From positions 22,721 through 86,720 of the forward strand of contig JBEKTW010000005.1 in NCBI GenBank assembly GCA_049515655.1: a DNA stretch of 64,000 nucleotides, given 5' to 3'. The stretch comes from Bacteroidota bacterium. Lineage in GTDB: Bacteria; Bacteroidota; Ignavibacteria; UBA10030; SZUA-254. The position numbers and the translations under genes were made by a program. Under the pieces are notes generated by a model. It was not told where the DNA came from. It saw nothing but the letters and a program-made list of their open reading frames with translations, and made no database searches. Positions 5,746 to 32,913 of the stretch are shown here, piece by piece (the stretch's first letter is position 1; each line of letters opens with the position of its first letter).

Positions 5746-5758
5746 GAATACCGGGAAC

Positions 5759-6361: not shown

Positions 6362-6459
6362 AACGCTCTCTTAACATACGAAACATATCTCAAAAACAAA
6401 AATCGTGCCTCAGGTTACTCTCTCGATTTCCTTCATTATCCGGCAGGATTACATTGTTT

Positions 6460-7623
6460 TCATGATCTGACAAACATCTTTCCCGGCATCTGCTGCACAA
6501 GGCCCTTGAACTCCAGATTTAGAAGATGAACGAGTGCATCCGACGTTGAAAGTTTCGCGGACTCGGCGATGCTGTCGATGTGGCGGGGCTCGTCGGAAAG
6601 CACGTCCCATATGGCTTTTTCGAAGAGTGTCAGATCCGGCGATGGCGCGCTTTCCTGCCTGACGGAATCCTTCACGAGCGGTCTCAATTTGGATGCCAGC
6701 TCCGCGAGTATATCATCGAAGCATTCGACGAGCTTGGCGCGGCCACTCTTGACCAGCGCATGGCACCCCCGGCTCTGTTTCACGCCCACATTGCCCGGAA
6801 CCGCAAACACTTCCCTGTTCTGATCGAGCGCGGTGTTCGCGGTGATCATCGCCCCGCCGTTAACGTCGGTCTCGATGACGAGCGTCCCCAGCGACAGTCC
6901 GCTTATGATGCGATTGCGGCGTGGAAAGTTTCCGGCATCGGGCTTCGTCCCCATTTCATACTCTGAGATCACCGCACCGTGTGCGGCGATCCTCTCGAAG
7001 AGATTCCTGTTTTCCGGCGGATAGGGAACATCCAGTCCGGAACCGATGACAGCGATCGTTCGTCCGCCTGCCTTGAGAGTCGAAGCGTGAACAATGGTGT
7101 CGACGCCTCTCGCGAGTCCGCTCACAACGGGGATGCCGATTTTGCAGAATTCCTGCACGAACTTCCCCGCGATCGTTGTGCCGTAGGGCGTCGGCGAGCG
7201 TGTGCCGACGATCGCGATTGCGAACCGGTCTTGCTCCGCAAAATCTCCCCGCACGAAGAGAAAAGGCGGCGGGTCATAGATCTTTTTCAACAAGTCCGGA
7301 TACTCCTTGTCCCAGAACGTGACAATCCTCCCCCCGGCTTTATTCAGCCGGGAAAGCTGCAGCTCGGCGTAGTTCTTTGCATCCTTATATCCCGAACTTC
7401 CGATGAAATGAACTATCTCCGAGGCCAGTTTCTTGCTGAAACCCTCCACTGCCGCAATCTCCCTCGGGGAAGACTCGACAACGACCGACGGGTCTCCGAA
7501 ATGGGATATGAGCACCCTTAACCGGTTCGGACCGATGTTGGGGATCTGCGATAGAACCAATAGATCAAAAACCGGAAACATGCCTCTCCTCCTCTGCCTC
7601 TCCCGGAGTCTATGCGCCGACAA
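6460..7623 (-). CDS. dprA: DNA processing protein DprA (Smf)
   Basis: 387 aa. It contains the DprA Rossmann-like core FAIAIVGTRSPTPYG...GLARGVDTIVH...GSGLDVPYPPENRNLF. Confidence 0.9.
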   Translation of the reverse strand: MSAHRLRERQRRRGMFPVFDLLVLSQIPNIGPNRLRVLISHFGDPSVVVESSPREIAAVEGFSKKLASEIVHFIGSSGYKDAKNYAELQLSRLNKAGGRIVTFWDKEYPDLLKKIYDPPPFLFVRGDFAEQDRFAIAIVGTRSPTPYGTTIAGKFVQEFCKIGIPVVSGLARGVDTIVHASTLKAGGRTIAVIGSGLDVPYPPENRNLFERIAAHGAVISEYEMGTKPDAGNFPRRNRIISGLSLGTLVIETDVNGGAMITANTALDQNREVFAVPGNVGVKQSRGCHALVKSGRAKLVECFDDILAELASKLRPLVKDSVRQESAPSPDLTLFEKAIWDVLSDEPRHIDSIAESAKLSTSDALVHLLNLEFKGLVQQMPGKMFVRS

Positions 7624-7649: not shown

Positions 7650-7922
7650 TTATCCTTTGACCTCCAATCCGTCCACGACTGCGACAATAACCGTGTGGAC
7701 GGGTATTTTCTTATTCCCCAAAACCTGGACGGCTCCCTGGCCTTCCTGGATCGTGAGCACCGTATCACCGACGCCGGCGTCCACCGAATCGATGGCGAGA
7801 ACATCGCGACCGATGAACTTTCCATCAAGGTCAATCGGTTGAACGATGAGGATCTTCTTGCCTTTCAGATGTTCGTTCTTTTGTGTGGCAACGATCGTAC
7901 CGATGACTTTTCCGAGAGTCAT
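7650..7922 (-). CDS. EutN/CcmL-family (BMC-P) microcompartment vertex protein; an orphan copy
   Basis: 90 aa. The sequence MTLGKVIGTIVATQKNEHLKGKKILIVQ...DSVDAGVGDTVL...VHTVIVAVVDGLEV follows the EutN/CcmL pattern G.VIGTVV.T.K...L.G.KLL.V...D..GAG.G..VL...PVDAVVVG.VD. Confidence 0.6.
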   Translation of the reverse strand: MTLGKVIGTIVATQKNEHLKGKKILIVQPIDLDGKFIGRDVLAIDSVDAGVGDTVLTIQEGQGAVQVLGNKKIPVHTVIVAVVDGLEVKG

Positions 7923-7929
7923 ACTTACT

Positions 7930-9327
7930 TTAGGATGTTTTTATTAGTCTCGTGAATTGTGCTACCAGTTGCCGGGACCGCCGTTTCGACGGCGCCTCGG
8001 CAATAATACGGATGATCGGTTCGGTATTAGATTTGCGCAGGTGAACCCATGAATCGGCAAAGTCGATCTTCAGTCCGTCCCGGACGTTTACCGTTCCCTT
8101 CTTCTCATTCCTGTGCCGGATCCTGTCAAGGAGCCGGTCGACATTCTTTTTGGCGACCATTACCTTCGATTTCGTGATTACATACCGGGGCAAGGTGGCC
8201 TTCAGCTCGGACAGCGTCCCGCCAAATTCACAAAGGTGTTGCAGGATAAGTGCGATGCCGACAATCGCATCTCTCCCGTAGTGCACTGCCGGCAGGATCA
8301 CGCCTCCGCTTCCCTCGCCGCCGACAACCGCACCGACTTCCTTCATTTTCCGGGCAACATTGATCTCACCGACCGGTGTCCGGATCACCCTGGCACCGAA
8401 TTTTCCGGCAACGTCATCAACCGCGCGGGTCGTCGAGAGGTTGACGACGACGGACAGTGAACGCTTCCGGCCATTCCCGGGAAGGCGGATGGATCCTTTG
8501 TGCGCTCGAATGCGCGGGAGGATGAAATCCACGACAGAAGTGACGGTATATTCTTCACCGAATGGTTCTCCCCGTTCCGTTATCAGTACAAGCCGGTCGA
8601 CGTCGGGGTCAACGGCAATGCCGAGGTCGGCGCCCTCCGCCCGGACACGCCGGCAGAGTGCTTTGAGGTTCTCCGGAATCGGTTCGGGAGTGTGGGCGAA
8701 CACACCGCTCACGTCGCAATTCATTTCAATGACGGTGCAGCCAAGCTTCCGCAGCAGTCGGGGAACAATCATCCCGCCCGCTGCATTGACGCAATCGACG
8801 ACAACTTTGAATCCCCGTTCCCGAATTTCGCCCGCGTGCACATACGGCAGTCGTGTAACCATATCGATGTGCCTCCAGATGAAAGTATCATCCGGGGTAT
8901 GCTTTCCCATCTTATTCCACGGGCTGTAGGAGAAATTGCCGCGGTCGGCGATGGCCATGAGCCGTTTGTTCTCTGCGGCGTTGAGGAACATACCGGTTTT
9001 ACCGAGGAACTTCAGCCCGTTCCATTGCACGGGATTGTGACTGGCAGTGATGGAGATTCCCCCGTCGGCATGAAGTTGTTCGACGGCAATCTGGATAGTC
9101 GGGGTCGGCACAACGCCAAGCGCCACCACATCGCATCCCATCGAAAGGAGTGTCGAGGAAACCAGATTTCCAATGACCTTTCCTGAAATTCTCCCATCCC
9201 TTCCGATGACCACGGTCCCCCGATTGCAGTATTGCGCGAAGGCACCGGAATACTTCAGGATGACGTCGGGGGTAAGGCCGTCACCGATGACACCGCGAAC
9301 GCCCGAAATGCTGACCATCAACGACAT
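7930..9327 (-). CDS. glmM: phosphoglucosamine mutase (Bacteroidetes-type GlmM; phosphohexomutase family)
   Basis: 465 aa. N-terminus SISGVRGVIGDGLTPDVILKYSGAFAQY, active-site region TASHNP and the metal loop GIAVDPDVDR are all present. Confidence 0.85.
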   Translation of the reverse strand: MSLMVSISGVRGVIGDGLTPDVILKYSGAFAQYCNRGTVVIGRDGRISGKVIGNLVSSTLLSMGCDVVALGVVPTPTIQIAVEQLHADGGISITASHNPVQWNGLKFLGKTGMFLNAAENKRLMAIADRGNFSYSPWNKMGKHTPDDTFIWRHIDMVTRLPYVHAGEIRERGFKVVVDCVNAAGGMIVPRLLRKLGCTVIEMNCDVSGVFAHTPEPIPENLKALCRRVRAEGADLGIAVDPDVDRLVLITERGEPFGEEYTVTSVVDFILPRIRAHKGSIRLPGNGRKRSLSVVVNLSTTRAVDDVAGKFGARVIRTPVGEINVARKMKEVGAVVGGEGSGGVILPAVHYGRDAIVGIALILQHLCEFGGTLSELKATLPRYVITKSKVMVAKKNVDRLLDRIRHRNEKKGTVNVRDGLKIDFADSWVHLRKSNTEPIIRIIAEAPSKRRSRQLVAQFTRLIKTS

Positions 9328-9702
9328 GACGACGACTTTCGGGAGTAGTGGAGTATTGGATTATTGGAGTGTTGCATATTCTGCCGATAAATGTAGCAAA
9401 GATGGGCATGAGAAGCAAGAAAAGAAGGTAATTTCAGGTAGTGGATCAATTTGGTCTGCCGTTATATCTCAGACCGACATGGCAGGGGAACGACGACATT
9501 ACGTCCCCTCTTGCCGAAGGCATCTCTCGGGACGAGAGGGGACTATAGGGGTGTGTTGATGACCGATCGCATTCTGTGTATGTAAGTGAGAGTGATGTGT
9601 CATCCCCAGTTACCCACCCCGTCGACTTCGTCGACACCCCTCCAAGGAGGGGACTTCCCTTTCCCCGCAGTTCAAAGTGAGTCAGTACCGATTCTTTGGA
9701 TT

Positions 9703-9728
9703 GTTTGAAAATGAATCGGAATTTCCGT
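9703..9728 (+). repeat. left 26-bp direct repeat (att-like) bounding the 9.7-14.9 kb island
   Basis: gtttgaaaatgaatcggaatttccgt occurs exactly here and again at 14836-14861. An exact 26-mer shared by chance in 64 kb is extremely unlikely. Confidence 0.85.
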
Positions 9729-9734
9729 TTGTAG

Positions 9735-9836
9735 TTTTGCCAGAACAAGATAAAAGAATTTATTACGAAGCTGCATATACCGGGAAGTGATCCACGAATC
9801 AAGGAGTTGGAGAAAAAGCTGGGTATCAGTGATTGA
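9735..9836 (+). pseudogene. C-terminal gene remnant (...IKELEKKLGISD*) directly after the left direct repeat
   Basis: A 33-codon open frame with no start codon ends at TGA 9834-9836. Homologous remnants (...FIKELDLEEKDLLKKLGQ*) recur at about 11095-11152 and, truncated, at about 10425-10452. Confidence 0.4.
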
Positions 9837-9863
9837 ATCTGCCGAGATCGTTTCGGTTTTCAC

Positions 9864-9900
9864 AAAGCCGGGCGTTTACAGAGCACCCGGCTTTTTTATT
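9864..9900 (+). terminator. rho-independent terminator-like hairpin with a T-tract; this is cassette repeat a
   Basis: aaagccgggcgtttacagagcacccggcttttttatt has an 8-bp GC stem followed by T6. Related hairpins lie at 10456-10521 and 11181-11210. Confidence 0.6.
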
Positions 9901-9924
9901 GCACATAATTCGTCTGAGACGCCG

Positions 9925-10350
9925 TCAGGTATGAGGAAGATATTTCTTGAGTTCCGCATAGAGTTGTTTTTCGGCTGGCAGGAGGGTCACGTGCGTACTG
10001 CGAGCTATTGCTATGCTTCGGTTCGCTCCAGTTTCCCTCATGTTAACGACACGTATGTAAGACAGAGGCTGCAGAACAGTCTCTAAATCCTCAGTTTTCC
10101 AATGCAGTGCGTCGCATAGTTTTTTCTGTTGTGCTTGCTTGTTTTTGGTAATTTCAAGAGCGTCCATAATACCTGCCTCAAGACATCCTTTGGACGCGGC
10201 GTACTCCAAGAAATCTCGCTCCCGCAAAACCGATGGCTTCCCTTTTTCTACAACTGTAAACGTTGGCGGCTTATCAGATAGTACGGGTTCTGACCGACCG
10301 ACTTCAATTCCCTTCCTCTGCAGACAAATCATGATTTCGCTGAAATTCAT
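9925..10350 (-). CDS. hypothetical protein (island cassette 1)
   Basis: 141 aa ORF in the low-GC island. No family was recognised. Confidence 0.45.
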   Translation of the reverse strand: MNFSEIMICLQRKGIEVGRSEPVLSDKPPTFTVVEKGKPSVLRERDFLEYAASKGCLEAGIMDALEITKNKQAQQKKLCDALHWKTEDLETVLQPLSYIRVVNMRETGANRSIAIARSTHVTLLPAEKQLYAELKKYLPHT

Positions 10351-10424
10351 TTGCGTTCTCCTTTGTCGTTACGAGGTCTTTTCTGATTCGCTCACTATAT
10401 ATTGTGAACTGAATAAACTTACTC

Positions 10425-10530
10425 AAACAAACGGTGAAATTCAAATTCATTAAAAGGCCGGGCCAGTGATTGAATCAAACGAGGGCATTACAGTTAAAAG
10501 CCAGACGTTTTCGGCCCGGCCTTTCATTGC
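10425..10530 (+). repeat. cassette repeat b, a degenerate copy of the gene-remnant plus hairpin unit
   Basis: It carries attcaaattcattaa and cagtgattgaatc, embedded in the ggccgggcc...ggcccggcc hairpin. Confidence 0.6.
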
Positions 10531-10594
10531 GATGTTTCCTGTACTAGGATGGCTTCAACTGAGGGTCATGGTTGATTCTTCCTTAACTGTTTTC

Positions 10595-10837
10595 CTAGGT
10601 GGGGTGCAAGCACGACTGAATCAGATGAGCAAAATCATTACCGCAAGTATGCGCAACTTGCGACTTGAAATGTTTTCCGTCATCATTGAGAGTAATGGTA
10701 GCACAGATATTATCCTTACCATGTCTTTTACAAACAAGCGACGAGATTGCATCATACATCCTCTTGAGCATTGACCCCGGGGGCAATTTGTCCGCGTCAA
10801 CGACTTTGTCACAGTATGTGAGAATAAATTTAATCAT
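10595..10837 (-). CDS. small hypothetical protein (island cassette 2)
   Basis: 80 aa. Its start overlaps the stop of the upstream small membrane ORF by 4 nt (ATGA). Confidence 0.3.
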   Translation of the reverse strand: MIKFILTYCDKVVDADKLPPGSMLKRMYDAISSLVCKRHGKDNICATITLNDDGKHFKSQVAHTCGNDFAHLIQSCLHPT

Positions 10838-11067
10838 AGTGTTCCGCTTTTCTTAGAGAGATATTGTACTACCGAAGTGTATCCGGCACAACACATGAGC
10901 AATGGAAGAAATCCATCGCTAAAAGTTGTAAAGAACCAAGTTGCGATCGGATTAGCTGATACCTTATACACGACTCCCCAAAACCACATCGTGAGAACAT
11001 AAAATATCAAAAAATTTACTGCTTGTGTCGGCTTAGCAGGTGCCCATTTAGTTGGTTCTGCTTGCAC
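10834..11067 (-). CDS. small predicted membrane protein with two hydrophobic helices (island cassette 2)
   Basis: 77 aa with two hydrophobic segments (FLIFYVLTMWFWGVVY and GFLPLLMCCAGY). It is translationally coupled to the 80-aa ORF. Confidence 0.35.
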   Translation of the reverse strand: MQAEPTKWAPAKPTQAVNFLIFYVLTMWFWGVVYKVSANPIATWFFTTFSDGFLPLLMCCAGYTSVVQYLSKKSGTL

Positions 11068-11087
11068 AATATAGCGACAAGGGGTGG

Positions 11088-11213
11088 ATATTCAAATTCA
11101 TCAAGGAGTTGGACTTGGAGGAAAAGGACTTACTTAAGAAGCTGGGGCAGTGATTGAATCAATACGAGGTGGTTTCACGAAGCCGGGGGATTACAGAATG
11201 CTCGGTTTTTTAT
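11088..11213 (+). repeat. cassette repeat c (gene remnant plus hairpin)
   Basis: attcaaattcatcaaggagttgga...aagctggggcagtgattgaatc...gaagccggg...ttacag...ctcggttttttattgc is homologous to unit a at 9790-9900. Confidence 0.65.
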
Positions 11214-11244
11214 TGCGATTATTCTGACTTAGCTAAGGCCAAAA

Positions 11245-11826
11245 TCAAATACGTATCCCTTTTGATTGCACTGCCCCAATGATTGCTTTGATGTCTTCCG
11301 CGCCATAAATCGACGCATCAATTTCACGATTGAATTCTGAAACGAACATGGAGTGCAACACTTTCTCCAGTGTTTCTGTTACGTGATTGAAAAAATCAAC
11401 CTCTATATCTGCATCATACCACACTTCACTGGGATTGAATACGGCTTTCTTATCTATGTGAAAATGAGCCTTGTCTCGCACTCCCTTCAGCTTGTCTGCA
11501 AGAATGTTGATGTCCGCCAGACTCAAACCGTTCTTGACCAGTTCGTCTTCTATGCCTTTCGTGTTGCATTTGTGCAAGTAGAAGAAGGAAGCTACACGTG
11601 TGTGTAAATCCAAAACATTCATTACATGTAAGAACATCGCGTCGTGCAATGCGAAGAATGAGTACGTGAAAATAGACGCGCCCGGTTCGGGAAAGGCCGA
11701 AACATTGGGTGCTATAGTCAGTAACTCAGTAAATGCATTCCTGTAAGAAAGAGCACGACGAAGCTCATAAAGGTTACGAATGAGTGCGCGACTATATGTG
11801 CTAAGTGGCCGGTGTTGGGAAGTCAT
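11245..11826 (-). CDS. hypothetical protein with a HEPN-like R-x4-6-H motif (possible RNase toxin)
   Basis: 193 aa. RDKAHFH lies at about aa 117-123, and the protein is predicted to be helical. No confident family could be assigned. Confidence 0.45.
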   Translation of the reverse strand: MTSQHRPLSTYSRALIRNLYELRRALSYRNAFTELLTIAPNVSAFPEPGASIFTYSFFALHDAMFLHVMNVLDLHTRVASFFYLHKCNTKGIEDELVKNGLSLADINILADKLKGVRDKAHFHIDKKAVFNPSEVWYDADIEVDFFNHVTETLEKVLHSMFVSEFNREIDASIYGAEDIKAIIGAVQSKGIRI

Positions 11827-11894
11827 CTACCTCTCTTGCGAACAAAACAGTTCTTGATTCTATTTCTAATCATTCATTGTCGCCTACCTTCCGT

Positions 11895-12668
11895 TCAAAA
11901 ATCTTCCGCTATGACATCCGCGGTAATGATGCAAGTTTTCAAGATTTCTACGCTTTCATGCCTAGAATCTCTAAAGGTTCTGTCAATAAAATCAATCATT
12001 TCAGGCACTTCGGAATCATCTTTCAGAATGATGTATTTGACATCGTCGGGCGTAAAGCTTAACCTGGATTTGAGAGCTAATTGTTCTTCTGCTGTTTCCC
12101 GCTTGGCCTTGTTTAGAAAGTCCGGCTTGATGAGAAGTCTAAGTTCAGAAGGGATATCATTCGGCACCAGCCTCCACTCCCTTTCGTTGTAGAATCTAAT
12201 GTCTTCTCTGTATGCGTTTTCCCTCCACAATTTCCCCTCATAAGGTTTGACATGACTGACAAATGTGAGTACAGCATCCACTAGTTTGTCTTTCAGCTCC
12301 CTCCTGACTTCCTCCTCTTGCGGATTCGTAGCGTTCAAGTTTTCAAACAAATATTGCAGTTTGGTTTTCTTGTGGACATAGAGAACTGGTGTAACTGAAT
12401 GGTCCATTCCCCACTGTTTGGATAGACCTAATCCGTAGCTCCTATCTCCGTAAAAGTCCAGATGGCTTCTTATTAGGAACAGAGGCAAATCGCAGAAGGA
12501 AATCATAGGAATCGCAAACTCTATCGTTCCATCTTGCCAATTCTCCAAGCAGTAATGTGGTATGAAGCCCTTCGCGAGGATGCCTTTCACCTTGTCAATG
12601 GACGGTGTGAAATGGAAGAGTGTGTTGGAACTTATGTTGACGGACGTCGTTCGGTTGTAGTCTGGCAT
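11895..12668 (-). CDS. AbiGi-like abortive-infection family protein (tentative)
   Basis: 257 aa. N-terminal SNTLFHFTPSIDKVKGILAKGFIPHYCLE. The AbiGi assignment rests only on my memory of that family's N-terminal motif and on the similar size. It is not a checked alignment or database hit and could be wrong. Confidence 0.45.
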   Translation of the reverse strand: MPDYNRTTSVNISSNTLFHFTPSIDKVKGILAKGFIPHYCLENWQDGTIEFAIPMISFCDLPLFLIRSHLDFYGDRSYGLGLSKQWGMDHSVTPVLYVHKKTKLQYLFENLNATNPQEEEVRRELKDKLVDAVLTFVSHVKPYEGKLWRENAYREDIRFYNEREWRLVPNDIPSELRLLIKPDFLNKAKRETAEEQLALKSRLSFTPDDVKYIILKDDSEVPEMIDFIDRTFRDSRHESVEILKTCIITADVIAEDF

Positions 12669-12766
12669 GAAGCACTCACTTCCTCAGTCATTCTTGAATC
12701 GTCACGGCCAGCGAATTTTGTGTGTGCTGGTCGCCCTAAAGTCTGGCCAAAGTCGTCGCTACGTCG

Positions 12767-13690
12767 TTACTTAGTCTCGGTTGCACGATAAGTCTCAATT
12801 AAGAATCGCATAAGTGTGGTTGTCAAGTATATCATGTACTCCAGTTCGGAATCCGAATAGACTCGCTCATCGGCAGGCTCAAAATCGCTGTCGTGCTTAA
12901 CGGCCGTGCTCTGGTACAACGAGAACTGTGTTAGCATAGTAAAATAGTTTTGACGAATCTGAGAGTGAACTCCTTTCTCTTTCATCCATTTGAGCAGCGG
13001 CTCTTTTTGCTTCTCAATCGGAGAATTGTTTCCTAAAACAACCTTCAGAAGGTTCTCAAGTGCAAATCGTAATGAATCTAGGGCTTGGCGGTACATAGAA
13101 GCGTCTTTGGAAACCGCTATGGAGAGTGCTTTGTTATATTCTTTGACGACGTCAGGATATTTTCTGAGCCAAATAGCGTTCTCGTCCACAGCTTCATCAA
13201 GCAGTTTGATACCATCAGGATAGAGCTCCATCTTGCCATCTATGTTCTCAATGCGTCTTATATTTATTCCCGACGAACTTTCGATTGCCGTGTTCAAATT
13301 TGCTATAAGAGATTGAACGGCTGTCTTGAACTCGTCAAGTGTCTCGTAAGAGGCAGATAATTGTTCAAGTGACCAGAAAAGACGCTGCAAGACAAGAATC
13401 AGCTCACTTAGCCCTTGCGCATTTGTAAGATGTTTGATAATACCTTGTCCGATTGCAAGGTATGCTGGGTCCACGTACTCTGAGCCGTTGATTACTGCAA
13501 ACTTTCCCTCAACTGCCGCCACCAGTGACGTAGCTTCAATATCGTATATCATCTCATCAAGGTATTTCAAATCGCTCAGAAAACTACCGACGGCCGTTGA
13601 CACTCTATTACGAAATTCTGAAAATAGCTTCTCTTTTGGGATGACTATTCCCCATCTTTGCATGAAATCATTGGTTGGTGTCTTGCTCAT
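12767..13690 (-). CDS. hypothetical protein, predicted helical, upstream partner of the AbiGi-like gene
   Basis: 307 aa ORF that reads convincingly as coding within the AT-richer island. No family was recognised. Confidence 0.55.
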   Translation of the reverse strand: MSKTPTNDFMQRWGIVIPKEKLFSEFRNRVSTAVGSFLSDLKYLDEMIYDIEATSLVAAVEGKFAVINGSEYVDPAYLAIGQGIIKHLTNAQGLSELILVLQRLFWSLEQLSASYETLDEFKTAVQSLIANLNTAIESSSGINIRRIENIDGKMELYPDGIKLLDEAVDENAIWLRKYPDVVKEYNKALSIAVSKDASMYRQALDSLRFALENLLKVVLGNNSPIEKQKEPLLKWMKEKGVHSQIRQNYFTMLTQFSLYQSTAVKHDSDFEPADERVYSDSELEYMIYLTTTLMRFLIETYRATETK

Positions 13691-13869
13691 GATAAGTCTG
13701 CCGATTCCCGTGCCTTTAATTGTACTTGGCGAATATACAAAAGATTTTGTCCCGTGTCAACAAAGTCTAAATCTATTTTTCTGGCTCGCTCATTGTTTTT
13801 CTTCAATATGAATGAGTAAACTTACCGAAAAAGACAAACATCGTAGCTTTTCGGTGTTATGTGCCGCGA

Positions 13870-14562
13870 TTATTTCTTGTTCAAACCTGTTTGCTGTTTA
13901 ACCGCTGGCGTGTCCGCTTTTATTCTTTCTGGATTTAGCACAAGCACTCTTGTTGTGTCACGAAAAGCGTTCATATTCGTAATGAGCACATCTCTCTGAG
14001 TTTTGTAGGTGACAAATTGGAAAAAACCCATCAAGAGACTTACAACAATTGATACAACAGCAATCCGAAATGTCAATTGTTGGGCTTGTTTTCTATCGGC
14101 CGCCTCTTGTTTTCTGTCCGCGGCGTCTTGAGCAAAGCGCTGTTCATCTAAGGTTAAGAAGCCACGGTCAACAAAATCAGATAACTCTGGTAGAGGGGCG
14201 ACATAAAATCCATCGTAAGACCGGATTATCCCCATGATTTCATGTTCCGCGTCGTTCTGACTAGCAAATATAGGTAAGAGGCGCACGCCCTTACTTGCCC
14301 TGCGTAACCTTGTTACAAGCCCTTCTCGTTCTAATCGTGACCAAAGTGATATGAATTCAGTAAGCTCTGAAATAGTTTTGTCACGATTCTTAGGAATATA
14401 ACCGGTTGTCTTAGGGTCACAAACCAAATCCCATCCAGGATAAGATTGCTGGAGGATGAAACGTTCAAAGTCACCGAACTGCAAGAGAAATTTTTCAGTG
14501 TCAGTTGCTTTGTTTTGCAGCCAGGCTCGTACAATCTCTTGTTGAATACTACTCAGTTTCAT
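13870..14562 (-). CDS. hypothetical protein with a single C-terminal transmembrane helix
   Basis: 230 aa. The C-terminal IAVVSIVVSLLMGFFQFV is hydrophobic and is preceded by a charged Lys/Gln-rich linker (DRKQEAADRKQ). Confidence 0.5.
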   Translation of the reverse strand: MKLSSIQQEIVRAWLQNKATDTEKFLLQFGDFERFILQQSYPGWDLVCDPKTTGYIPKNRDKTISELTEFISLWSRLEREGLVTRLRRASKGVRLLPIFASQNDAEHEIMGIIRSYDGFYVAPLPELSDFVDRGFLTLDEQRFAQDAADRKQEAADRKQAQQLTFRIAVVSIVVSLLMGFFQFVTYKTQRDVLITNMNAFRDTTRVLVLNPERIKADTPAVKQQTGLNKK

Positions 14563-14835
14563 ATCGCTTTACTCCATGTTGTGCTGAGCAAACTTACCCA
14601 AACACGCTGTAAATATCAAGTCCACTTGTAATTCTGACCAATCGCGTTCTGAGCTTAGACCGAGGAATGCGTTTCGTGTTTGGGCAGGCAGAAAACAATA
14701 AACCCGTTCAGAGACCTCCTTCCTGTTCCCAAACAGGCCTTATTGCTCAAAACACTGTAGGACAAAATGTAGGATGATTCGCACAAATCCTGCAATTTCC
14801 CGCATTGCAGTCGTTCAAGAGTGCTTTCCCATACC

Positions 14836-14861
14836 GTTTGAAAATGAATCGGAATTTCCGT
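14836..14861 (+). repeat. right 26-bp direct repeat (att-like) bounding the island
   Basis: Exact copy of 9703-9728. Confidence 0.85.
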
Positions 14862-14885
14862 AAGTTTCTGTCGAGCATATCAATA

Positions 14886-15464
14886 ATGGATACTGATTCC
14901 ATGCTATCCAAATCTGAAAAGCAGTTCTTACTCGAGATTGCCCGGGCGTCCGTGGGCGCTGCAGTGAGACTCGAGACCGCGCCAAAGCGCGGCGATTGCC
15001 CTCCGGTGATTCTACGGCCGAGCGGCGCGTTCGTCACGCTGCACGAAAAAGGTGAATTGCGTGGATGCATCGGGTATATCGAAGCCATCAAGCCGATGAT
15101 CGATACCGTGCGCGAGGTTGCGGCCAAGGCGGCAACATCAGACCCCCGCTTCGCTCCCGTCACCCCCGAGGAACTGCCGATTCTCGAGATCGAGATTTCC
15201 GTAATCTCTCCAATGAAACGAATCCAGAACATCGACGAGATTGAGGTCGGCAAGCACGGATTGCTCCTCGAGCGAGGGATGTACCGCGGCCTCCTGCTGC
15301 CGCAGGTGGCGACAGAATACGGTTGGGACAGGGAAACCTTTCTCAATCAGACGGCGAGGAAGGCCGGCCTGGAGCCGACGGCATGGAAGAAACCCGGAAC
15401 GACGATATACACCTTTACCGCTGAAATTTTTGGTGAGCGCTCTATGGACTCACAACATTCATAA
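14886..15464 (+). CDS. AMMECR1 domain protein (AmmeMemoRadiSam system protein A-like)
   Basis: The AMMECR1 core VTLHEKGELRGCIGYIEA is present. The true start is taken as the ATG at 14886 because the longer ORF-track start would run through the direct repeat. Confidence 0.8.
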   Translation: MDTDSMLSKSEKQFLLEIARASVGAAVRLETAPKRGDCPPVILRPSGAFVTLHEKGELRGCIGYIEAIKPMIDTVREVAAKAATSDPRFAPVTPEELPILEIEISVISPMKRIQNIDEIEVGKHGLLLERGMYRGLLLPQVATEYGWDRETFLNQTARKAGLEPTAWKKPGTTIYTFTAEIFGERSMDSQHS

Positions 15465-25213: not shown

Positions 25214-28200
25214 ATGGAGGAAACGATGAGAAGAATTTTGTTGGTAGTCTTGACGGCAGCAACACTTGCCAGCGCTCAACAGCGCGTGCTTGTATCCTCG
25301 AACAACGAAGTCGTTCCCTTGAAGAACGGTGAAGGTGCACTCGAAGCCGTAAAACGATATACCCAACACAAGAAGTTATTTCACACCTCTCAGACCGGAT
25401 GCAGTGATACATCGTCATACGGCTTCTCTCCCAATAATTATCCGCCGATGGATTTATTATATGCCTATCACAAAGACATGTTGGCGGAATGGCTGATTGC
25501 CCCGGCGGACGGCATTATCGATTCAGTATATCTTCTCACGGGTTCTCCAGTTCCCCACGATTCCACATTGTACTTGCGAATAATGGAGTCTCGCATCTAT
25601 CCTGGAAGCGGACCGGGCTACGGCGAGTTCGCGCCAAATTTGCCCGGGGCGTGCAATGATTCAGTCGGACCTTGGGGATGCGACTTTTGCCCCCTCCCCT
25701 GGGGATACTTCACGAACACCAATGACCTGGATGGTCAGGAGAACAACCCACCAACGTGGGGTATCGGTGGAGTAGCTGCGTTCGTGGAGGATGCAACCCC
25801 TCCAGATTCAACGGCGTGGGTCTCAACCTTGCAAAGATCCTATCCGCATGCGCCGGTAACGTTTCCTCCAACGGTTGATGAAATCTGGGGAATTGGAGGA
25901 CATTCCGTCCGTATCAGGCCAAATAGCGTGAACGTCTTTAACTTGCATTCCCTTGGCGCACCCTCGCTGCACACAGGCCAGCCACTCATGATTGTACTTG
26001 AGATAAGGGGCTATTGCAATGAATGGTTGGATGATTGTGAGAATGATCCATATCGAACAGGTGTTGCAGCTAATGCTGCCTCTTTCGATTCGCACGTACA
26101 CTACCATACGCACTTTTGGAAGTTCTATGAGCACGGTCTCGCCTGTGGATTTCCGGGCTGGACGGACCGCGGGAGTTATGAACTTCTTCTTTGGTATTCG
26201 ATGACATTGACAGGCAATGTACCTCCACGAATTGTCGACATGACCACATTGCCAGCGACTCTGGGAGCGAAGGCACAGACGTTCGCCGCTGATATCGAAG
26301 ACTGCAATATTGCAGATCCTGCCAGTGCCGGTGTTGTGTCGGCAAGCCTTAGCTACTCTGTCGATAACGGACCTTACACAACCGTCCCTATGACTAATCA
26401 GGGCGGAATAACATGGCAAGCAACGATCCCACCGGTTCCTCCGACTAATGGTCGCCCTTATTCCCGGACAGTGAACTATTTCATCTCGGCAGCAGATTCT
26501 CAAGGGCTAACGATGGATACCATTTATCATAATTACAAAGTCCTGTCGTTCGGCGATGAATGGTATTATCCCGACACCACGATTGCATACAATCCGGTTG
26601 TCGTCAAAGGTAACGGCGGCATTGAAATAGATCCTTCGATCTTCTTCGAGCCGCCGTATCCTGGCGCCGGGACACATCCCAAAGACGACGGCACCGCGGG
26701 TCCGTTTGACCTCGGCGGACAGTTCATCTACTTCGGCGACACAGTGCGATACGCCTGGGTCGGCGTGAACGGCGGCATCGCACTTTCACGTTCACCAACA
26801 GACACGATCGACGTCAATGCAAATGGATCGTTCTCCAGTGGAATTCCATGGAATATCCCTTCTCCACAGCATAAAGGCCGCGCAGATATTGCCGGCGCAA
26901 CGAATAGTCCAAGAAATTTCATCGCACCGGACTGGCAGGACTTCATCCTGGCAGATTCAGCGCGACAGTACGGTCATATCTTATATCGGACAGATAGCTG
27001 CCGGTTCATTGTCGAATATGACTCGATAGGAATCGGGGGAATTACGCCCGCGGCGAGCAACACTACGTTCCGGGTGATTCTCAACCGATGCGACGGAACG
27101 ATCGAATTCCAGTACGACAGTGTCGGAGCATTCAATGCAAATTCCATGTGTGTGGTTGGACTCCAAGGCGATTCCCTCCTGGGACATAATCCCGGTTATC
27201 TACTGCTTTCCCGTTGGGCGTTTGCCGATTTCGGTCCAGTTGAATGGACTCCACGCAACAATCGCTCAGTGCGTTTGTATCCCACAGTTGGCGCGGCGGT
27301 AGCAGGCGGATGGAATTTGGTGTCCGTGCCGGTGATTCCCCCCGGAAATGACTACGACGTATCCTTTCTCTTCCCGGGAGCGATCTTATATCCATTCAGG
27401 TACTATGGCGGATACAAACGAGACAGCATACTTTCAAACGGCGTAGGATATTGGATGAAGTTCAGCAGAGGCAACGTCCTTGCAATGCCCGGACGCCTGC
27501 TGTACGCATTCGATGATAGTGTGAAGGTGGACTGGAACATGATCGGAGCGATCGGGAAATCTGTTGCGACGGGCGCTGTGGTTCAGGATCCGGCGAACCT
27601 TGTATCGTCTAATTACTTCGGTTACAACCACGGGTACTTTATCGCGACATCAATCGACCCGGGCAAGGGATATTGGGTGAAATCACGGGGGACGGGTGTG
27701 CTGCACCTGACAGCCAGCTCGATACCGAAGTCGTCTTCGGCACTTGCAGATCTGACGGTGCTCAACAGGATCACGGTGACCGACGCGGAAAAGAACCAGC
27801 AGCCGTTGTACGTTGGCAGTGAGAGCGACCTGAAGGTGCCGGCAAGCATGTATGAGATGCCTCCGGTAGCGCCGGGAGGGATATTCGATGTACGGTTCGC
27901 GTCGCAGCGGATGGTAGAGACGTATCCGGACAAGCTACAAGGCGGGAAAGTTTATGAGTTCCCGATCAGTATTCAGACGAATGCGTATCCTGTGACGGTT
28001 CAGTGGCAGATACAGAACACGAACGGTCGGACGCTGACGTTGACGGACGGGCTCAGCGGACGGATTGTGAACAACGCGGCGTTGACGAACAGCGGATCGA
28101 TCAAGATAATGAACCCGAGCGTGAAGTCGTTGGTGCTGAAGCTGGTGGAAGGCCGAACGGTGCCGAAAGAGTTCGCATTGAGTCAGAACTATCCTAATCC

Positions 28201-28453
28201 ATTCAATCCGACAACCAATTTCGAATTTCGGATTGCCAATTTCGGATTTGTTTCGCTCAAGGTGTATGACGTGCTGGGCAGAGAGGTATGCACGCTGGTG
28301 AATGAGGCCAAGCAGCCGGGCGAGTATACCGTGGAGTGGAATGCGGAAGGCATAGCGAGCGGCGTATATTTCTACCGTCTCACTGCTGGCAATCCTTCGG
28401 CAAGCTCAGGACGCGGATTCACAGACGTCAAGAAGATATTGCTCTTGAAGTGA
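25214..28453 (+). CDS. large secreted protein with a T9SS C-terminal sorting domain (paralog A)
   Basis: The C-terminus LSQNYPNPFNPTT...KVYDVLGREV...GVYFYRL is a Por_Secre_tail-type CTD, and there is an N-terminal signal peptide. The start may be the second ATG (MRRILL), which is preceded by GGAGGA. Confidence 0.85.
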   Translation: MEETMRRILLVVLTAATLASAQQRVLVSSNNEVVPLKNGEGALEAVKRYTQHKKLFHTSQTGCSDTSSYGFSPNNYPPMDLLYAYHKDMLAEWLIAPADGIIDSVYLLTGSPVPHDSTLYLRIMESRIYPGSGPGYGEFAPNLPGACNDSVGPWGCDFCPLPWGYFTNTNDLDGQENNPPTWGIGGVAAFVEDATPPDSTAWVSTLQRSYPHAPVTFPPTVDEIWGIGGHSVRIRPNSVNVFNLHSLGAPSLHTGQPLMIVLEIRGYCNEWLDDCENDPYRTGVAANAASFDSHVHYHTHFWKFYEHGLACGFPGWTDRGSYELLLWYSMTLTGNVPPRIVDMTTLPATLGAKAQTFAADIEDCNIADPASAGVVSASLSYSVDNGPYTTVPMTNQGGITWQATIPPVPPTNGRPYSRTVNYFISAADSQGLTMDTIYHNYKVLSFGDEWYYPDTTIAYNPVVVKGNGGIEIDPSIFFEPPYPGAGTHPKDDGTAGPFDLGGQFIYFGDTVRYAWVGVNGGIALSRSPTDTIDVNANGSFSSGIPWNIPSPQHKGRADIAGATNSPRNFIAPDWQDFILADSARQYGHILYRTDSCRFIVEYDSIGIGGITPAASNTTFRVILNRCDGTIEFQYDSVGAFNANSMCVVGLQGDSLLGHNPGYLLLSRWAFADFGPVEWTPRNNRSVRLYPTVGAAVAGGWNLVSVPVIPPGNDYDVSFLFPGAILYPFRYYGGYKRDSILSNGVGYWMKFSRGNVLAMPGRLLYAFDDSVKVDWNMIGAIGKSVATGAVVQDPANLVSSNYFGYNHGYFIATSIDPGKGYWVKSRGTGVLHLTASSIPKSSSALADLTVLNRITVTDAEKNQQPLYVGSESDLKVPASMYEMPPVAPGGIFDVRFASQRMVETYPDKLQGGKVYEFPISIQTNAYPVTVQWQIQNTNGRTLTLTDGLSGRIVNNAALTNSGSIKIMNPSVKSLVLKLVEGRTVPKEFALSQNYPNPFNPTTNFEFRIANFGFVSLKVYDVLGREVCTLVNEAKQPGEYTVEWNAEGIASGVYFYRLTAGNPSASSGRGFTDVKKILLLK

Positions 28454-28494
28454 GTCGCGGACCTCATGCAGTTCGTGGAATTGAATCTTTCGGC

Positions 28495-28590
28495 TGTTTA
28501 CCCTGACCCCTTTCCCCTCTCCCGAACCTGTCCTGAGCGAAGTCGAAGGAGCGGGAGAGGGGAATCGAAGGGGTGAGGGTTGTGATTGTG
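28495..28590 (+). repeat. palindromic intergenic repeat (cccctttcccctctcccg ... tgtcctgagcgaagtcgaagga ... cgggagaggggaa)
   Basis: The inverted arms flank the same core found at 23775-23800. Confidence 0.6.
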
Positions 28591-28609
28591 ATCAACTGGT
28601 AACTACCTG

Positions 28610-31600
28610 ATGGAGGAAACGATGAGAAGAATTTTGTTAGTAGTCTTGACGGCAGTAACACTTGCCAGCGCCCAGAAGCGGGTGCTTATATCCTCGAACA
28701 ATGACGTCGTTCCCTTAAAACCTGGGGAGAACGCAGTGCAGGCCTTGCAAAATCTCGCGAAGGAACGAGGGCTGATGAAAATCTCCGAGACCTCGTGTGC
28801 GAACCCGATCGGTTTTGGCTACAGCGTAGATCCTCCGCCACCAACTGGCGCGTGGACATCTTTGCACAAGGATATATTTGGAATATGGTTCCAGGCACCT
28901 TGCGATGGAGTGATAGATACGCTCTATACATGGAACGACGGATGGATGAACTCTGACTCGGCCCTCATCCTTCGGTTAATGGAATCCCGCATTTACAATG
29001 GCAGCGGACCGGGCTATGGGAAATTTGCAGCTTATCTGCCTGGGTATAATTTTGTCGGGGATCCTCCCATGTATATAAACACTCCGCTGTGCTGGGGATA
29101 CTTCACGGATACAAACGACCTGGATGGTCAGGGGTACAACCCGGGTATCGGCGGAGTGACTGCGTTCGCCGATGATGCTACACCGCCTGACTCAACGGCC
29201 TGGGTCTCGACACTGCAAAGACAGTTTCCGGGAGCGCCGACCACATTCTCAGCGATGGGAGATGAAATCTGGGGACTCGGCGGCTACCCGTTCAGACACC
29301 TTAAGGCTGGTGCAATTAACAAATTCAATCTACATCTCATAGGTGCACCCAGCGTTCACGCGGGTCAACCGATTTATATTGCGTTTATTGTCCCCGGCAT
29401 ACATCCCGTTATTGAGGAGGAGGTTCCGACAAGTATTTTCAGGAACGACGTTCCTCCCGACCCTAATGGTTTCTACCATACTCATACATGGAAATTCTAT
29501 GAGCACAATGGCACCTGCGGCATTCCAGGATGGACCGACCGCGGCAGTTTCGAAACATACATTTGGTACTCGATGACGGTAACTGGCGACGTCCCTCCGC
29601 GCCTAATGTACATGACCAACCTTGGAGCCACATTGGGCGGATCACCGCGCGACATCACGGTCAATCTGGAGGACTGCAACTTCGACAATCCTGCCAGCGC
29701 GGGAGTTGCGTGGGCACATCTGGGATATTCCGTCGACGGTGGGCCGTTCGCGATAGTCCCTTTGAACTATGCCGGCGGGACAACATGGAACCGTCAGATC
29801 CCGGCTGTCGCACCGACGACCGGCCGACCGTATTCACGCACCGTCCAGTATTATGTTGCGGCAGCCGATTCCCAGGGATTAGCTATGGATAGCGGCGCTG
29901 TGCATTCGTACAAAGTCGTTTCGTTCGGTAATGAGTTTTATTATCCTGATACGTCGGTCGCCTGCATTCCTCAGATCATCAAGGACACACCGGGCAGTCA
30001 TTATCTCGACACAACGAGCACGCTGGGCAGCAGCCCGCACCCCACCTGGTTCTCGCCTCCGTACCGGGATGCAGCGAAAGCTCCCGGGAACGACGGGACC
30101 GCAGGACCGATCTCGCTCGGCGGACCGTTCATCTACTTTGGAGATACGGTAAATTACGCGTGGATCGGAGTGAACGGCGCGATGGCACTTTCGAAAACTG
30201 CAACGGACACGATCGATGTGAACTCAAACGGATCGTATGCCGACTATGACTTCCCGGATGCAGAGCATCTCGGTCGCGGAGATACGGCGGGCAGAAGCAA
30301 CATACCGAGGAACTTCATAGGGACGTTGTGGTATGACCTCGTCTATGTCGATGACGCTAATGTGCAGTATGGACGCATTTTCACTAAGAGCGACAGCTGC
30401 CGGTTCATCGCAGAATATGATTCCATCGGAGAACTGTATGAACCATGGGCGGCATTCATCCCGAGCAACACGACGTTCCGTACGGTTTTGAATAAATGCG
30501 ATGGGACGATCGAGATGCAGTGGGATAATGTCCAGGAAGCAATCGCACTGGATACTGTTTCGACCGTTGCTTTCGTGGGTGATTCGGGAAGGATCATCCG
30601 TCCCGATTCCTTGCGAACTCAGGTGGGACATAACCCGGGATGGCTGAAGTTCTATCGTGGTTCGAATTACGGTCCGATAAATCTCCGCCCCCGGGACGGT
30701 CGGTGTGTCCGGTTCCGTCCGACCGCGGGTACGGTGGTGGCGGCCGGCTGGAATATGGTGTCGGTGCCAACCCACCCGCCGGGCGACAATTATGGGCGGA
30801 CCTATCTGTACCCGAATGCGACCTCCCCAGCGTTCAGTCATCACGGTTATTATCGTCAAGACACAACGCTGGCACCGGGCGTTGGATACTGGCTGAAGTT
30901 CCCTGCGGCGAATGGGTATGCGACACCAGGCCCGCCTGTGTTCAGCGGAGTCGACAGCGTAAAGATGGATTGGAACATGGTGGGAGCGATCGGGAAACCG
31001 GTTGCGACGGGCGCTGTGGTTCAGGATCCGGCGAACCTTGTATCGTCTAATTACTTCGGTTACAACCACGGGTACTTTATCGCGACATCGCTCGACCCGG
31101 GCAAGGGCTACTGGGTGAAGTCGAGGGGGACGGGTGTGCTGCACCTGGCGGCCAGCTCGATACCGAAGTCGTCTTCGGCACCTGCGGATCTGACGGTGCT
31201 CAACAGGATCACGGTGACCGACGCGGAAAAGAACCAGCAGTCGTTGTACATCGGCAGTGAGAGCGACCTGAAGGCACCCGCGAGCATGTATGAGATGCCT
31301 CCGGTAGCACCGGCAGGGATATTCGATGTGCGATTCTCGTCGCAGCGGATGGTAGAGACGTATCCGGACAAGCTAGAAGGCGGGAAGGTTTACGAGTTCC
31401 CGATGAGTATTCAGACGAATGCGTACCCTGTGACGGTTCAGTGGGATGTAAAGAACACGAACGGTCGGACGCTGACGTTGACGGACGGGCTCGGCGGACG
31501 AATAGTAAACAATGCGGTGTTGACGAGCAGCGGATCGATCCGTATAACGAACGCGAGTGTGAAGTCGTTGGTGCTGAAGCTGGTCGAAGGGCGACCGGTG

Positions 31601-31882
31601 CCCAAGGAATATGCGTTGAGCCAGAACTATCCGAACCCATTCAATCCTACTACGGTTATCCGCTATCAGTTACCGGTAAATAGTGTTGTGACTCTGAAGG
31701 TGTACAATATTCTCGGACAAGAGGTAGCGGGGCTTGTGAATGGAATGGAAGATGCGGGGTTCAAGTCAGTGGAGTTTGACGGGAGGAGTGAAAACGGGAG
31801 CATGCTACCAAGCGGTGTCTATTTTTACAGGATTCAAGCTGCCGGGTTCATTGCCGTCAGGAAGATGCTCCTGCTCCGGTAG
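28610..31882 (+). CDS. large secreted protein with a T9SS C-terminal sorting domain (paralog B)
   Basis: Its N-terminus matches paralog A. About 680 bp (30981-31655) is roughly 93% identical to 27541-28215. Its own CTD is divergent (NPFNPTTVIRYQL...GVYFYRIQAAG). Confidence 0.85.
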   Translation: MEETMRRILLVVLTAVTLASAQKRVLISSNNDVVPLKPGENAVQALQNLAKERGLMKISETSCANPIGFGYSVDPPPPTGAWTSLHKDIFGIWFQAPCDGVIDTLYTWNDGWMNSDSALILRLMESRIYNGSGPGYGKFAAYLPGYNFVGDPPMYINTPLCWGYFTDTNDLDGQGYNPGIGGVTAFADDATPPDSTAWVSTLQRQFPGAPTTFSAMGDEIWGLGGYPFRHLKAGAINKFNLHLIGAPSVHAGQPIYIAFIVPGIHPVIEEEVPTSIFRNDVPPDPNGFYHTHTWKFYEHNGTCGIPGWTDRGSFETYIWYSMTVTGDVPPRLMYMTNLGATLGGSPRDITVNLEDCNFDNPASAGVAWAHLGYSVDGGPFAIVPLNYAGGTTWNRQIPAVAPTTGRPYSRTVQYYVAAADSQGLAMDSGAVHSYKVVSFGNEFYYPDTSVACIPQIIKDTPGSHYLDTTSTLGSSPHPTWFSPPYRDAAKAPGNDGTAGPISLGGPFIYFGDTVNYAWIGVNGAMALSKTATDTIDVNSNGSYADYDFPDAEHLGRGDTAGRSNIPRNFIGTLWYDLVYVDDANVQYGRIFTKSDSCRFIAEYDSIGELYEPWAAFIPSNTTFRTVLNKCDGTIEMQWDNVQEAIALDTVSTVAFVGDSGRIIRPDSLRTQVGHNPGWLKFYRGSNYGPINLRPRDGRCVRFRPTAGTVVAAGWNMVSVPTHPPGDNYGRTYLYPNATSPAFSHHGYYRQDTTLAPGVGYWLKFPAANGYATPGPPVFSGVDSVKMDWNMVGAIGKPVATGAVVQDPANLVSSNYFGYNHGYFIATSLDPGKGYWVKSRGTGVLHLAASSIPKSSSAPADLTVLNRITVTDAEKNQQSLYIGSESDLKAPASMYEMPPVAPAGIFDVRFSSQRMVETYPDKLEGGKVYEFPMSIQTNAYPVTVQWDVKNTNGRTLTLTDGLGGRIVNNAVLTSSGSIRITNASVKSLVLKLVEGRPVPKEYALSQNYPNPFNPTTVIRYQLPVNSVVTLKVYNILGQEVAGLVNGMEDAGFKSVEFDGRSENGSMLPSGVYFYRIQAAGFIAVRKMLLLR

Positions 31883-32022
31883 CCCCGAAAAAGCCCTGGT
31901 AAGCCACATCCCTGCGGTTCGCGGGGCAGAATGTCGGAATTCTGCTCCGGAACCTGCCATTTGCATATTCCCAACAAAATCGTATATTTAGTAAAGTATT
32001 GATTTCAGGGTCAAAACAACCT

Positions 32023-32913
32023 ATGCAGCCAGAAGAAGTCGAAAAACTCGTCCAATCGATCCTCCATGAACAAGGGGCCGGACACTCATGCTGCGCCGAT
32101 GGGAAATGCACCGATGGGCTATGCGTCATCCACAACAAGGAAGGCGTCAAGAACATCGTCCATAACGGAGCATCGCGAGTCTCGGCGGGCATTGGAATTG
32201 AGGCGGCGGGCGGAGTCGAGACGGATCTTGCCCGGATGATCGACCATACCTTGCTGAAACCTGAAGGCACAAAGGACCAAATCATCCAGCTTTGCAACGA
32301 AGCGAAGAAATACAATTTTGCGAGTGTCTGCATCAACCCGTGTTATGTCTCGCTGTGCGCAAAACTTCTCCGGGACACCTCCGTAAAAGTGTGTACGGTC
32401 ATTGGCTTCCCGCTCGGCGCGACCTCGACCGCAACGAAGGCATTTGAAGCGGAACAAGCCCTTCGCGACGGCGCGAAGGAGATTGATATGGTCATCAACA
32501 TCGGCATGCTCAAGTCGCGCGAATACGAATATGTTGAGAACGATATTTTTGCAGTCGTGACGACAGGGCGCCGCTACGGGGCGTTATCCAAGGTCATTCT
32601 CGAAACGGCACTTCTGACCGACGAAGAAAAGGTTAAAGGCTGCATCCTGGCAAAGCGTGCAGGCGCGGATTTTGTCAAGACGTCTACGGGATTTTCCAAG
32701 GGCGGGGCGACGGTGGGCGACATCGCTCTCATGCGGAGGGTTGTCGGAACTTCGATGGGCGTGAAAGCGTCCGGCGGCGTCCGCACGCGTGAGGATGCCC
32801 TCGCGATGGTTGCGAGCGGTGCCGACCGCATCGGCGCAAGCGCCAGCGTCAAGATCGTTGTCGGGAACGGGGACGAGAAAAAGCAGGAACATTCCGCGAC
32901 TCGCGCAAACTAA
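32023..32913 (+). CDS. deoC: deoxyribose-phosphate aldolase (DeoC) with an N-terminal extension
   Basis: The DeoC core MIDHTLLKP...VCINPCYV...GFPLGA...K...VKASGGVR is present. The start is taken as the ATG at 32023 because the ORF-track start at 31999 is a TTG. The first roughly 40 aa, [34 protein letters not shown], are additional. Confidence 0.85.

Follow-up and report, generated by a model that had tools for sequence, protein, structure and literature searches.

Organisation of the deoC locus

The DNA examined here is a 64,000-nt stretch (hereafter the window) of contig JBEKTW010000005.1 in assembly GCA_049515655.1, from a bacterium of the Ignavibacteria lineage UBA10030/SZUA-254. The gene in question is deoC, which encodes a class I deoxyribose-phosphate aldolase (DERA) preceded by an N-terminal extension that begins with a putative encapsulation peptide (EP), a type of sequence associated with bacterial microcompartments (BMCs). 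The gene and the segments of its product are as follows.

32023 to 32913, forward strand: deoC, 296 amino acids, stop codon at 32911-32913; recognised from its open reading frame, PF01791, TIGR00126 and its orthologues
32029 to 32067, forward strand: amphipathic helix, putative EP, residues 3-15; hydrophobic moment, AlphaFold models (AF2) and conservation
32068 to 32088, forward strand: variable linker, residues 16-22; no dominant residue, and insertions and deletions in both the A1 and the 95-sequence alignments described below
32089 to 32136, forward strand: Cys-x4-Cys-x4-Cys-x2-His motif, residues 23-38; conservation and third-codon-position substitution bias
32137 to 32223, forward strand: second helix and GAxR segment up to the barrel, residues 39-67; conservation, hhalign and AF2
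32224 to 32877, forward strand: catalytic class I DERA TIM barrel, residues 68-285; alignment with solved DERAs and the invariant D155, K190 and K219

The Pfam DeoC/LacD domain (PF01791, also written pfam01791) is found at residues 72-272 (E 1e-16), and the NCBIfam deoC equivalog TIGR00126 scores 279 bits (cutoff 117) over residues 69-278. Solved DERA structures, 204-288 residues in length, align from query residues 62-68 on and not before; the best structural match, 6d33 (E 7e-82), starts at residue 68. Because all of these alignments begin at residues 62-72, about 67 N-terminal residues are extra relative to the solved DERAs, none of them BMC-associated, in agreement with the original prediction, which had placed an extension ahead of the DeoC core. 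D155, K190 and K219 do not vary in either of two alignments and are taken here to be the counterparts of D102, K167 and K201, the catalytic triad of Escherichia coli DERA. The protein is presumably an active, normal class I aldolase. More than 120 orthologues with 74-100% identity are found in the protein databases, and nearly all are full length and keep the extension.

Start codon, promoter and coding status of the extension

Five relatives all keep the ATG at 32023, while the sequence upstream of it diverges. The alternative start, a TTG at 31999, shows no such conservation. One further element precedes the gene.

31960 to 31990, forward strand: promoter-like element TTTG-N19-TATATTTA, 33 nt before the deoC ATG

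The TTTG and TATAT of this element are invariant among the same five relatives although its flanks diverge, and a consensus scan detects it as well. It resembles what we take to be the -33/-7 promoter consensus of Bacteroidota, suggesting a separate promoter for deoC. Between this element and the stop codon of the upstream gene, which belongs to the type IX secretion system (T9SS) class, lies a perfect 7-bp inverted repeat, GCAGAAT-N6-ATTCTGC (31925-31946), which is partly conserved in close relatives and could be a terminator that lacks a T-tract.

Across residues 24-68, the differences from the window in 99 related loci number 846/513/2759 on codon positions 1/2/3. As they pile up at the third position, the extension is coding and under purifying selection. 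It has to be considered whether the extension is instead an artefact of annotation, translation starting near M72 and the upstream frame being open by chance, or, as the original prediction allowed, whether the true start lies further downstream. Two orthologues, P0111 and P0118, are indeed annotated from an internal Met with 276 amino acids. An artefact is nevertheless highly improbable given the invariant ATG, the conserved promoter-like element, the third-position bias and the Cys and His residues that are invariant across about 100 loci; even the shortened annotations retain the Cys module. These two proteins, from metagenome-assembled genomes (MAGs) at NCBI, start with MCCKDG..., and the amphipathic helix is thereby lost. 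Start calls of this type would conceal the peptide from protein-based EP screens.

The N-terminal helix and its comparison with encapsulation peptides

Conservation was assessed in a set of 95 distinct relatives, and an alignment and profile of the extension (A1) was built. In the 95 relatives, positions 6, 9, 10, 13 and 14 of the helix are occupied by I, L, V, M or F in 96-100% of the sequences and form a hydrophobic face, whereas the positions between them are polar and variable. The maximal hydrophobic moment over 11 residues is 0.64, at residues 4-14, a value reached by 0.15% of shuffles of residues 2-18 (p 0.0015) and comparable with the moments of the EPs of the aldehyde dehydrogenase (AldDh) and RpiB of a sugar-phosphate utilisation (SPU) locus, scored alongside. 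AlphaFold was run twice, with 60 orthologues and then with variant fragments added. Both models place a helix at the N-terminus, at residues 3-15 in one and 3-12 in the other.

EPs are defined as terminal amphipathic helices of 15-20 residues, followed by a poorly conserved linker and confined to homologues associated with compartments (PMC4594438). In the EP of PduP, mutagenesis picked out L6, L9, I10, I13 and L14 as important (PMC4594438), and the DeoC helix has the same hydrophobic register, at positions 6, 9, 10, 13 and 14. The EPs of PduP, EutC, EutE and PduD (Fan 2010; PMC4594438) consist of an amphipathic helix, some 15 residues long, at the N-terminus with a variable linker, as does the start of the window DeoC; unlike them, the DeoC has a variable linker of only about 7 residues, followed by a conserved module of 45 residues, and the cargo enzyme is a different one. 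The helix is amphipathic in the sense of Kinney 2012 and Aussignargues 2015, and the EP-like character that the original prediction had read from its hydrophobic periodicity is supported by the moment, the shuffles, the PduP register and the modelled helices. The comparison of orthologues proposed with that prediction also gave the distribution expected of an EP: the extension is kept in the orthologues, has homologues in the DeoCs of SPU loci and is absent from the solved DERAs, and BMC-P, the vertex protein of microcompartment shells, is encoded on the same contigs wherever these allowed a check. When the window and about 0.7 Mb of related DNA were scanned with an EP-style pattern, the DeoCs were recovered together with the AldDh (MKDNEIQNIVERVMREV) and RpiB (MNLSPEQIRALVQDVVIRTL) of the SPU locus L035; beyond DeoC and these SPU controls, only a few apparent false positives were obtained.

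The Cys-rich module

After the short linker, the extension carries the motif (C)CxDGxCxDGLCVxHN. In the 95 relatives C24 is conserved in 94%, C29 in 100%, C34 in 98% and H37 in 97% of the sequences, and C23 is less conserved than these four. Residues 39-67 comprise a helix with GVKNIV, modelled by AF2 at residues 39-47 with low confidence, and then GAxR(V/I)(S/T)AxxG, in which G49, A50 and R52 are invariant across all extension types, the DeoCs of SPU loci included. The original prediction had described a Cys-rich linker. The cluster of Cys residues is indeed present, but it is not a loose linker, being the best-conserved part of the extension. Most lineages possess four Cys/His ligands, and one variant type, with GWERNV, possesses two Cys. 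The extension by itself had no significant match in the PDB or in Pfam. The Cys3His motif is a possible metal-binding knuckle. The most likely role of the Cys3His/GAxR module is to bind a metal or to dock onto the barrel; zinc and iron are possible metals, and the formation of disulfides is a further possibility.

Such a module raises an alternative, namely that the extension is a self-contained cytoplasmic domain for metal binding or oligomerisation, through which the aldolase is regulated or stabilised, with the helix as a part of this domain and no microcompartment involved. Conservation is higher in residues 23-68 than in the helix, and an invariant Cys3His and GAxR would be unusual for an EP linker, as this explanation would lead one to expect. 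It accounts less well for the PduP register of the helix and for the results of the profile search, which finds the module on DeoC only, including DeoCs that lie beside shell genes in SPU loci.

Homology to DeoCs of microcompartment loci

A search of 1.84 billion representative proteins with the A1 profile gave 18 matches, all of them DeoC N-termini. Two variant types of extension were recognised. The first consists of an EP, CNCTDGSCxxxC and VxxVVQAGAxR, and the second of an EP, CxGxTCxGWERNV and VKxIIxNGAxR. The variant DeoCs came from the protein search as fragments only, and several lie on long contigs. One of them, P0154, is located in L035, which has the order RpiB(EP)-DeoC-BMC-Tdp-BMC-H-BMC-P-AldDh(EP)-...-BMC-T-BMC-P and is a canonical SPU locus. 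The variant P0157 is followed within 5 kb downstream by BMC-H, BMC-P, AldDh fragments and BMC-T. For P0138, two BMC-H genes are found 8 kb upstream and the rest of the context is housekeeping, and for P0145 no shell gene was found within 10 kb.

The alignment of A1 with the L035 extension by hhalign has a probability of 95.9% (E 5e-9) over the Cys/GAxR module, and BLASTP aligns the whole window DeoC with the L035 DeoC from residue 29 on at 60% identity. Because the module is homologous to that of DeoCs lying in SPU or shell-gene loci, the whole extension belongs to a lineage of compartment-associated DeoCs.

A further fragmented arrangement occurs in another lineage, at L037 (3-564 and 8308-9405), where the DeoC has the two-Cys extension type (CxGxTCxGWERNV) and two tandem BMC-H genes stand alone in a housekeeping context some 8 kb upstream of it.

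Shell genes in the window and around the orthologues

An orphan vertex gene near 7.7 kb had been noted in the original prediction, and it is confirmed by its family assignment.

7650 to 7922, reverse strand: orphan BMC-P (vertex pentamer) gene, PF03319 (E 1e-24), between dprA (6460-7623) and glmM (7930-9327)

This gene lies about 24 kb upstream of deoC. It has more than 1,100 homologues, many of them named EutN/CcmL and from Ignavibacteria; the orthologues of the window BMC-P share 76-99% identity. The arrangement glmM-BMC-P-dprA recurs in L118-L121. The phosphoglucomutase/phosphomannomutase-type gene adjoining BMC-P was considered as a phosphopentomutase, which could have connected the vertex gene to deoxyribose metabolism, and rejected, as it is GlmM (TIGR03990, 518 bits).

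DeoC and BMC-P are confirmed by coordinates on one contig in three cases, where they are 19.5, 20 and 17 kb apart. These three contigs share the synteny of the window, with rpoN, DUF3109, dprA, BMC-P, glmM, AMMECR1, Memo, DUF2520 and an NTP-transferase gene. Six further contigs probably bear both genes, since BMC-P and DeoC orthologues were found on contigs of exactly equal size. The sizes common to the BMC-P and DeoC protein lists are 28902, 402891, 140187, 133020 and 136642, and those matched via the DeoC and BMC-P loci are 107059, 58550, 44580 and 67545 (nine in all, including the three confirmed contigs).

Around the DeoCs of 113 related loci, shell genes are encountered in three, L117, L111 and L055, each with BMC-P within about 10 kb. 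In L117 the order is deoB-BMC-P-BMC-P, then an rpoD-like gene, NlpC/P60, def and fmt, and then DeoC with its extension and two genes with SPOR domains. The deoB gene encodes a phosphopentomutase (NF003766, 514 bits; TIGR01696, 465 bits). At 4672-6481 of this locus (metagenome contig Ga0105104_10002690), the two tandem BMC-P paralogues begin 65 nt after deoB and lie 3.5 kb upstream of DeoC; they represent a second and a third BMC-P paralogue. L117 directly connects, at the level of the genome, vertex genes with the catabolism of deoxyribose-phosphate in a lineage of the Ignavibacteria type. L111 has the same gene order as L117, and in L055 glmM-BMC-P is located about 10 kb upstream of DeoC.

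BMC-P is thus present wherever enough of the contig is visible, that is, in the window, on the three confirmed and the six further contigs, and in L055, L111 and L117. Genomes bearing the window type of DeoC also bear vertex genes. A genome carrying the extension without any BMC gene, which the original prediction had named as a counterexample, did not turn up. To our knowledge, vertex genes have no role outside microcompartments.

The location of the shell genes bears on the alternative of a cytoplasmic domain in two ways. No shell gene is adjacent to DeoC in the 113 loci apart from the three exceptions, which fits a cytoplasmic enzyme, but BMC-P on every contig long enough to check does not, and together with the distribution of the module this makes a purely cytoplasmic function of the extension unlikely.

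A different explanation is that the helix is a relic inherited from a DeoC of an SPU locus, the enzyme being cytoplasmic here and the dispersed shell genes serving another pathway or decaying. Shell and cargo genes are unlinked, as this would predict, and about 1.26 Mb of related DNA yielded neither an AldDh nor a phosphotransacylase (PTAC) bearing an EP; moreover, the microcompartment type FRAG1, to which such dispersed shell genes are compared below, has been published as shell-only. On the other hand, a relic would not be expected to keep its hydrophobic face at 96-100% in 95 sequences whose N-terminal identity to the query falls to 43% and whose polar positions drift. The BMC-P orthologues are conserved too, and the deoB of L117 forms a unit with two BMC-P genes. 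A relic is therefore judged quite improbable.

Comparison with known microcompartment systems

SPU loci are defined by DeoC, RpiB and AldDh (Axen 2014, PMC4207490), and more than 280 of them were catalogued by Sutter 2021 (PMC8217296). N-terminal EPs on pfam01791 proteins are documented there in SPU3, most SPU4 and some SPU6 loci, so that an EP on DeoC is of an already known kind, and the statement in the original prediction that DeoC is the signature enzyme of sugar-phosphate compartments is well founded. The SPU DeoC and the window DeoC belong to the same enzyme family, and both carry an N-terminal amphipathic EP-type helix and homologous Cys-rich/GAxR modules; their chemistry is presumed to be the same, with deoxyribose-5-phosphate giving glyceraldehyde-3-phosphate plus acetaldehyde. 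The Cys patterns differ, being CxDGxCxDGLCVxHN (Cys3His) in the window DeoC and CNCxDGSCxxxC in the SPU DeoC. The window protein is a DERA-type pfam01791 member with intact catalytic residues, as the SPU signature enzyme should be. Unlike in SPU loci, however, the window deoC lies outside any locus of shell genes, pfam02502 RpiB and pfam00171 AldDh; BMC-H/T, RpiB and AldDh are absent both from the 64-kb window and from the 10 kb around DeoC in the 113 related loci, and the nearest shell gene is the lone BMC-P 24 kb away. Because shell genes, RpiB and AldDh do not lie alongside it, the window DeoC is not filed as a member of an SPU locus.

FRAG1 comprises 57 loci, mainly from Ignavibacteria, that contain shell proteins only: a BMC-P triplet, two BMC-H, one of which carries a long extension at its C-terminus, and often a PduS/T pair (PMC8217296). 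The window matches FRAG1 in taxon, its closest relatives being Ignavibacteria/Ignavibacteriota MAGs, and its shell gene is dispersed among unrelated housekeeping genes, which fits the 'lack of locus organization' described for FRAG1. As FRAG1 is described as shell-only, the window DeoC would be an unreported candidate cargo. The MAG names of the relatives showed no overlap with the FRAG1 genome lists in the supplement of Sutter 2021, and no literature linking Ignavibacteria microcompartments with deoxyribose was found.

Two other published cases are similar in part. Genomes having HO loci contain remote pfam01791 genes with EP-like N-termini (PMC8217296), that is, aldolases located away from the main shell genes that nonetheless have an EP-like extension, as the window DeoC has. 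FRAG3, FRAG5 and FRAG8 hold pfam01791 near shell genes (PMC8217296), and the proximity of DeoC/DeoB and BMC-P in L117 is similar to that of DeoC beside BMC-P in FRAG3. The HO and FRAG3 cases belong to another phylum and shell type, and they were published in one sentence, the extension not being analysed there. The new elements here are the EP on a conserved DeoC from a lineage that bears FRAG1, the unit deoB-BMC-P-BMC-P and the Cys3His/GAxR module with its conservation.

Proposed encapsulation of the aldolase

Taken with the alternatives above, the evidence makes it probable, though well short of certain, that the window DeoC is an active aldolase whose own N-terminus delivers it into a microcompartment. 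During assembly, helix 3-15 would use its hydrophobic face (V6, L9, V10, I13 and L14) to bind the lumenal side of a shell protein or to co-aggregate with other cargo. The shell would be of the FRAG1 kind, with scattered genes, one of which would encode the vertex protein upstream in the window. The volatile and toxic acetaldehyde released by the aldolase would be confined in the shell for further oxidation, as in SPU metabolosomes. The final oxidation step would require a partner aldehyde dehydrogenase, and none was found in the window.

Several observations weigh against delivery into a microcompartment. As the original prediction had stated for the window, no further shell genes appear there: BMC-H/BMC-T, AldDh, PTAC and RpiB are all absent from the 64 kb, and the same genes were not found within 10 kb of DeoC in the 113 related loci. 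The 64 kb therefore hold neither a complete shell nor a complete pathway. The linkage of DeoC and BMC-P over 17-24 kb may lack functional meaning because it lies in a conserved housekeeping synteny block. Residues 16-22 are variable as in an EP linker, but residues 23-67 are highly conserved; because the region after the helix is so unlike an EP linker in this respect, the helix could form part of a larger folded or metal-binding unit. The whole extension has a pLDDT below 50 in both AlphaFold runs, against about 90 for the core in the second. Finally, searches with EP hidden Markov models across FRAG genomes gave no matches (PMC8217296).

A broader proposal is put forward more tentatively and is somewhat less likely to hold than not. 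FRAG1 compartments would be deoxyribose-phosphate, or DNA-salvage, metabolosomes whose cargo genes are scattered, with the window DeoC as the first cargo and the Cys3His/GAxR element as a metal or redox element of the cargo. In that case this element would act in assembly or in the control of the enzyme inside the shell.

Other features of the window

The remaining genes of the window encode housekeeping proteins and secreted T9SS proteins, and there is a low-GC island. Directly upstream of deoC are two very large tandem genes (25214-31882; 1079 and 1090 amino acids), the second of which possesses a FlgD-Ig/T9SS C-terminal sorting domain; both are absent at that position in relatives. Downstream, two SPOR-domain genes (PF05036, 32939-34034) begin 25 nt after deoC, and the order deoC-SPOR-SPOR is kept in the distant L117 (10880-11991) despite different upstream genes.

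The low-GC stretch extends from glmM to the Memo gene (9500-15000), with 42-45% GC against about 55% in its flanks. It holds a gene for an AbiGi-like abortive-infection antitoxin (11895-12668, PF10899) and several open reading frames without a family. As AMMECR1-Memo directly adjoin glmM in L118 and L121, the stretch has the look of an insertion, either a defence island or a mobile one. No tRNA gene was found at the edges of the island.

Implications

The general picture of how microcompartments work is unchanged by these results. The conserved Cys-rich module on compartment-associated DeoCs is seemingly undescribed, and residues 1-22 or 1-67 provide a defined peptide for encapsulation tests. 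The case also indicates that cargo may be recognised far from shell genes. The FRAG loci are among the microcompartment types without assigned function in the 2021 catalogue, and the window DeoC is the first candidate for a cargo of those Ignavibacteria microcompartments whose genes are scattered. A conserved EP-type DeoC in more than 100 related sequences, together with the deoB-BMC-P-BMC-P unit, leads to a testable hypothesis for the function of FRAG1, namely that its organelles, like SPU compartments, process deoxyribose-5-phosphate derived from DNA detritus.

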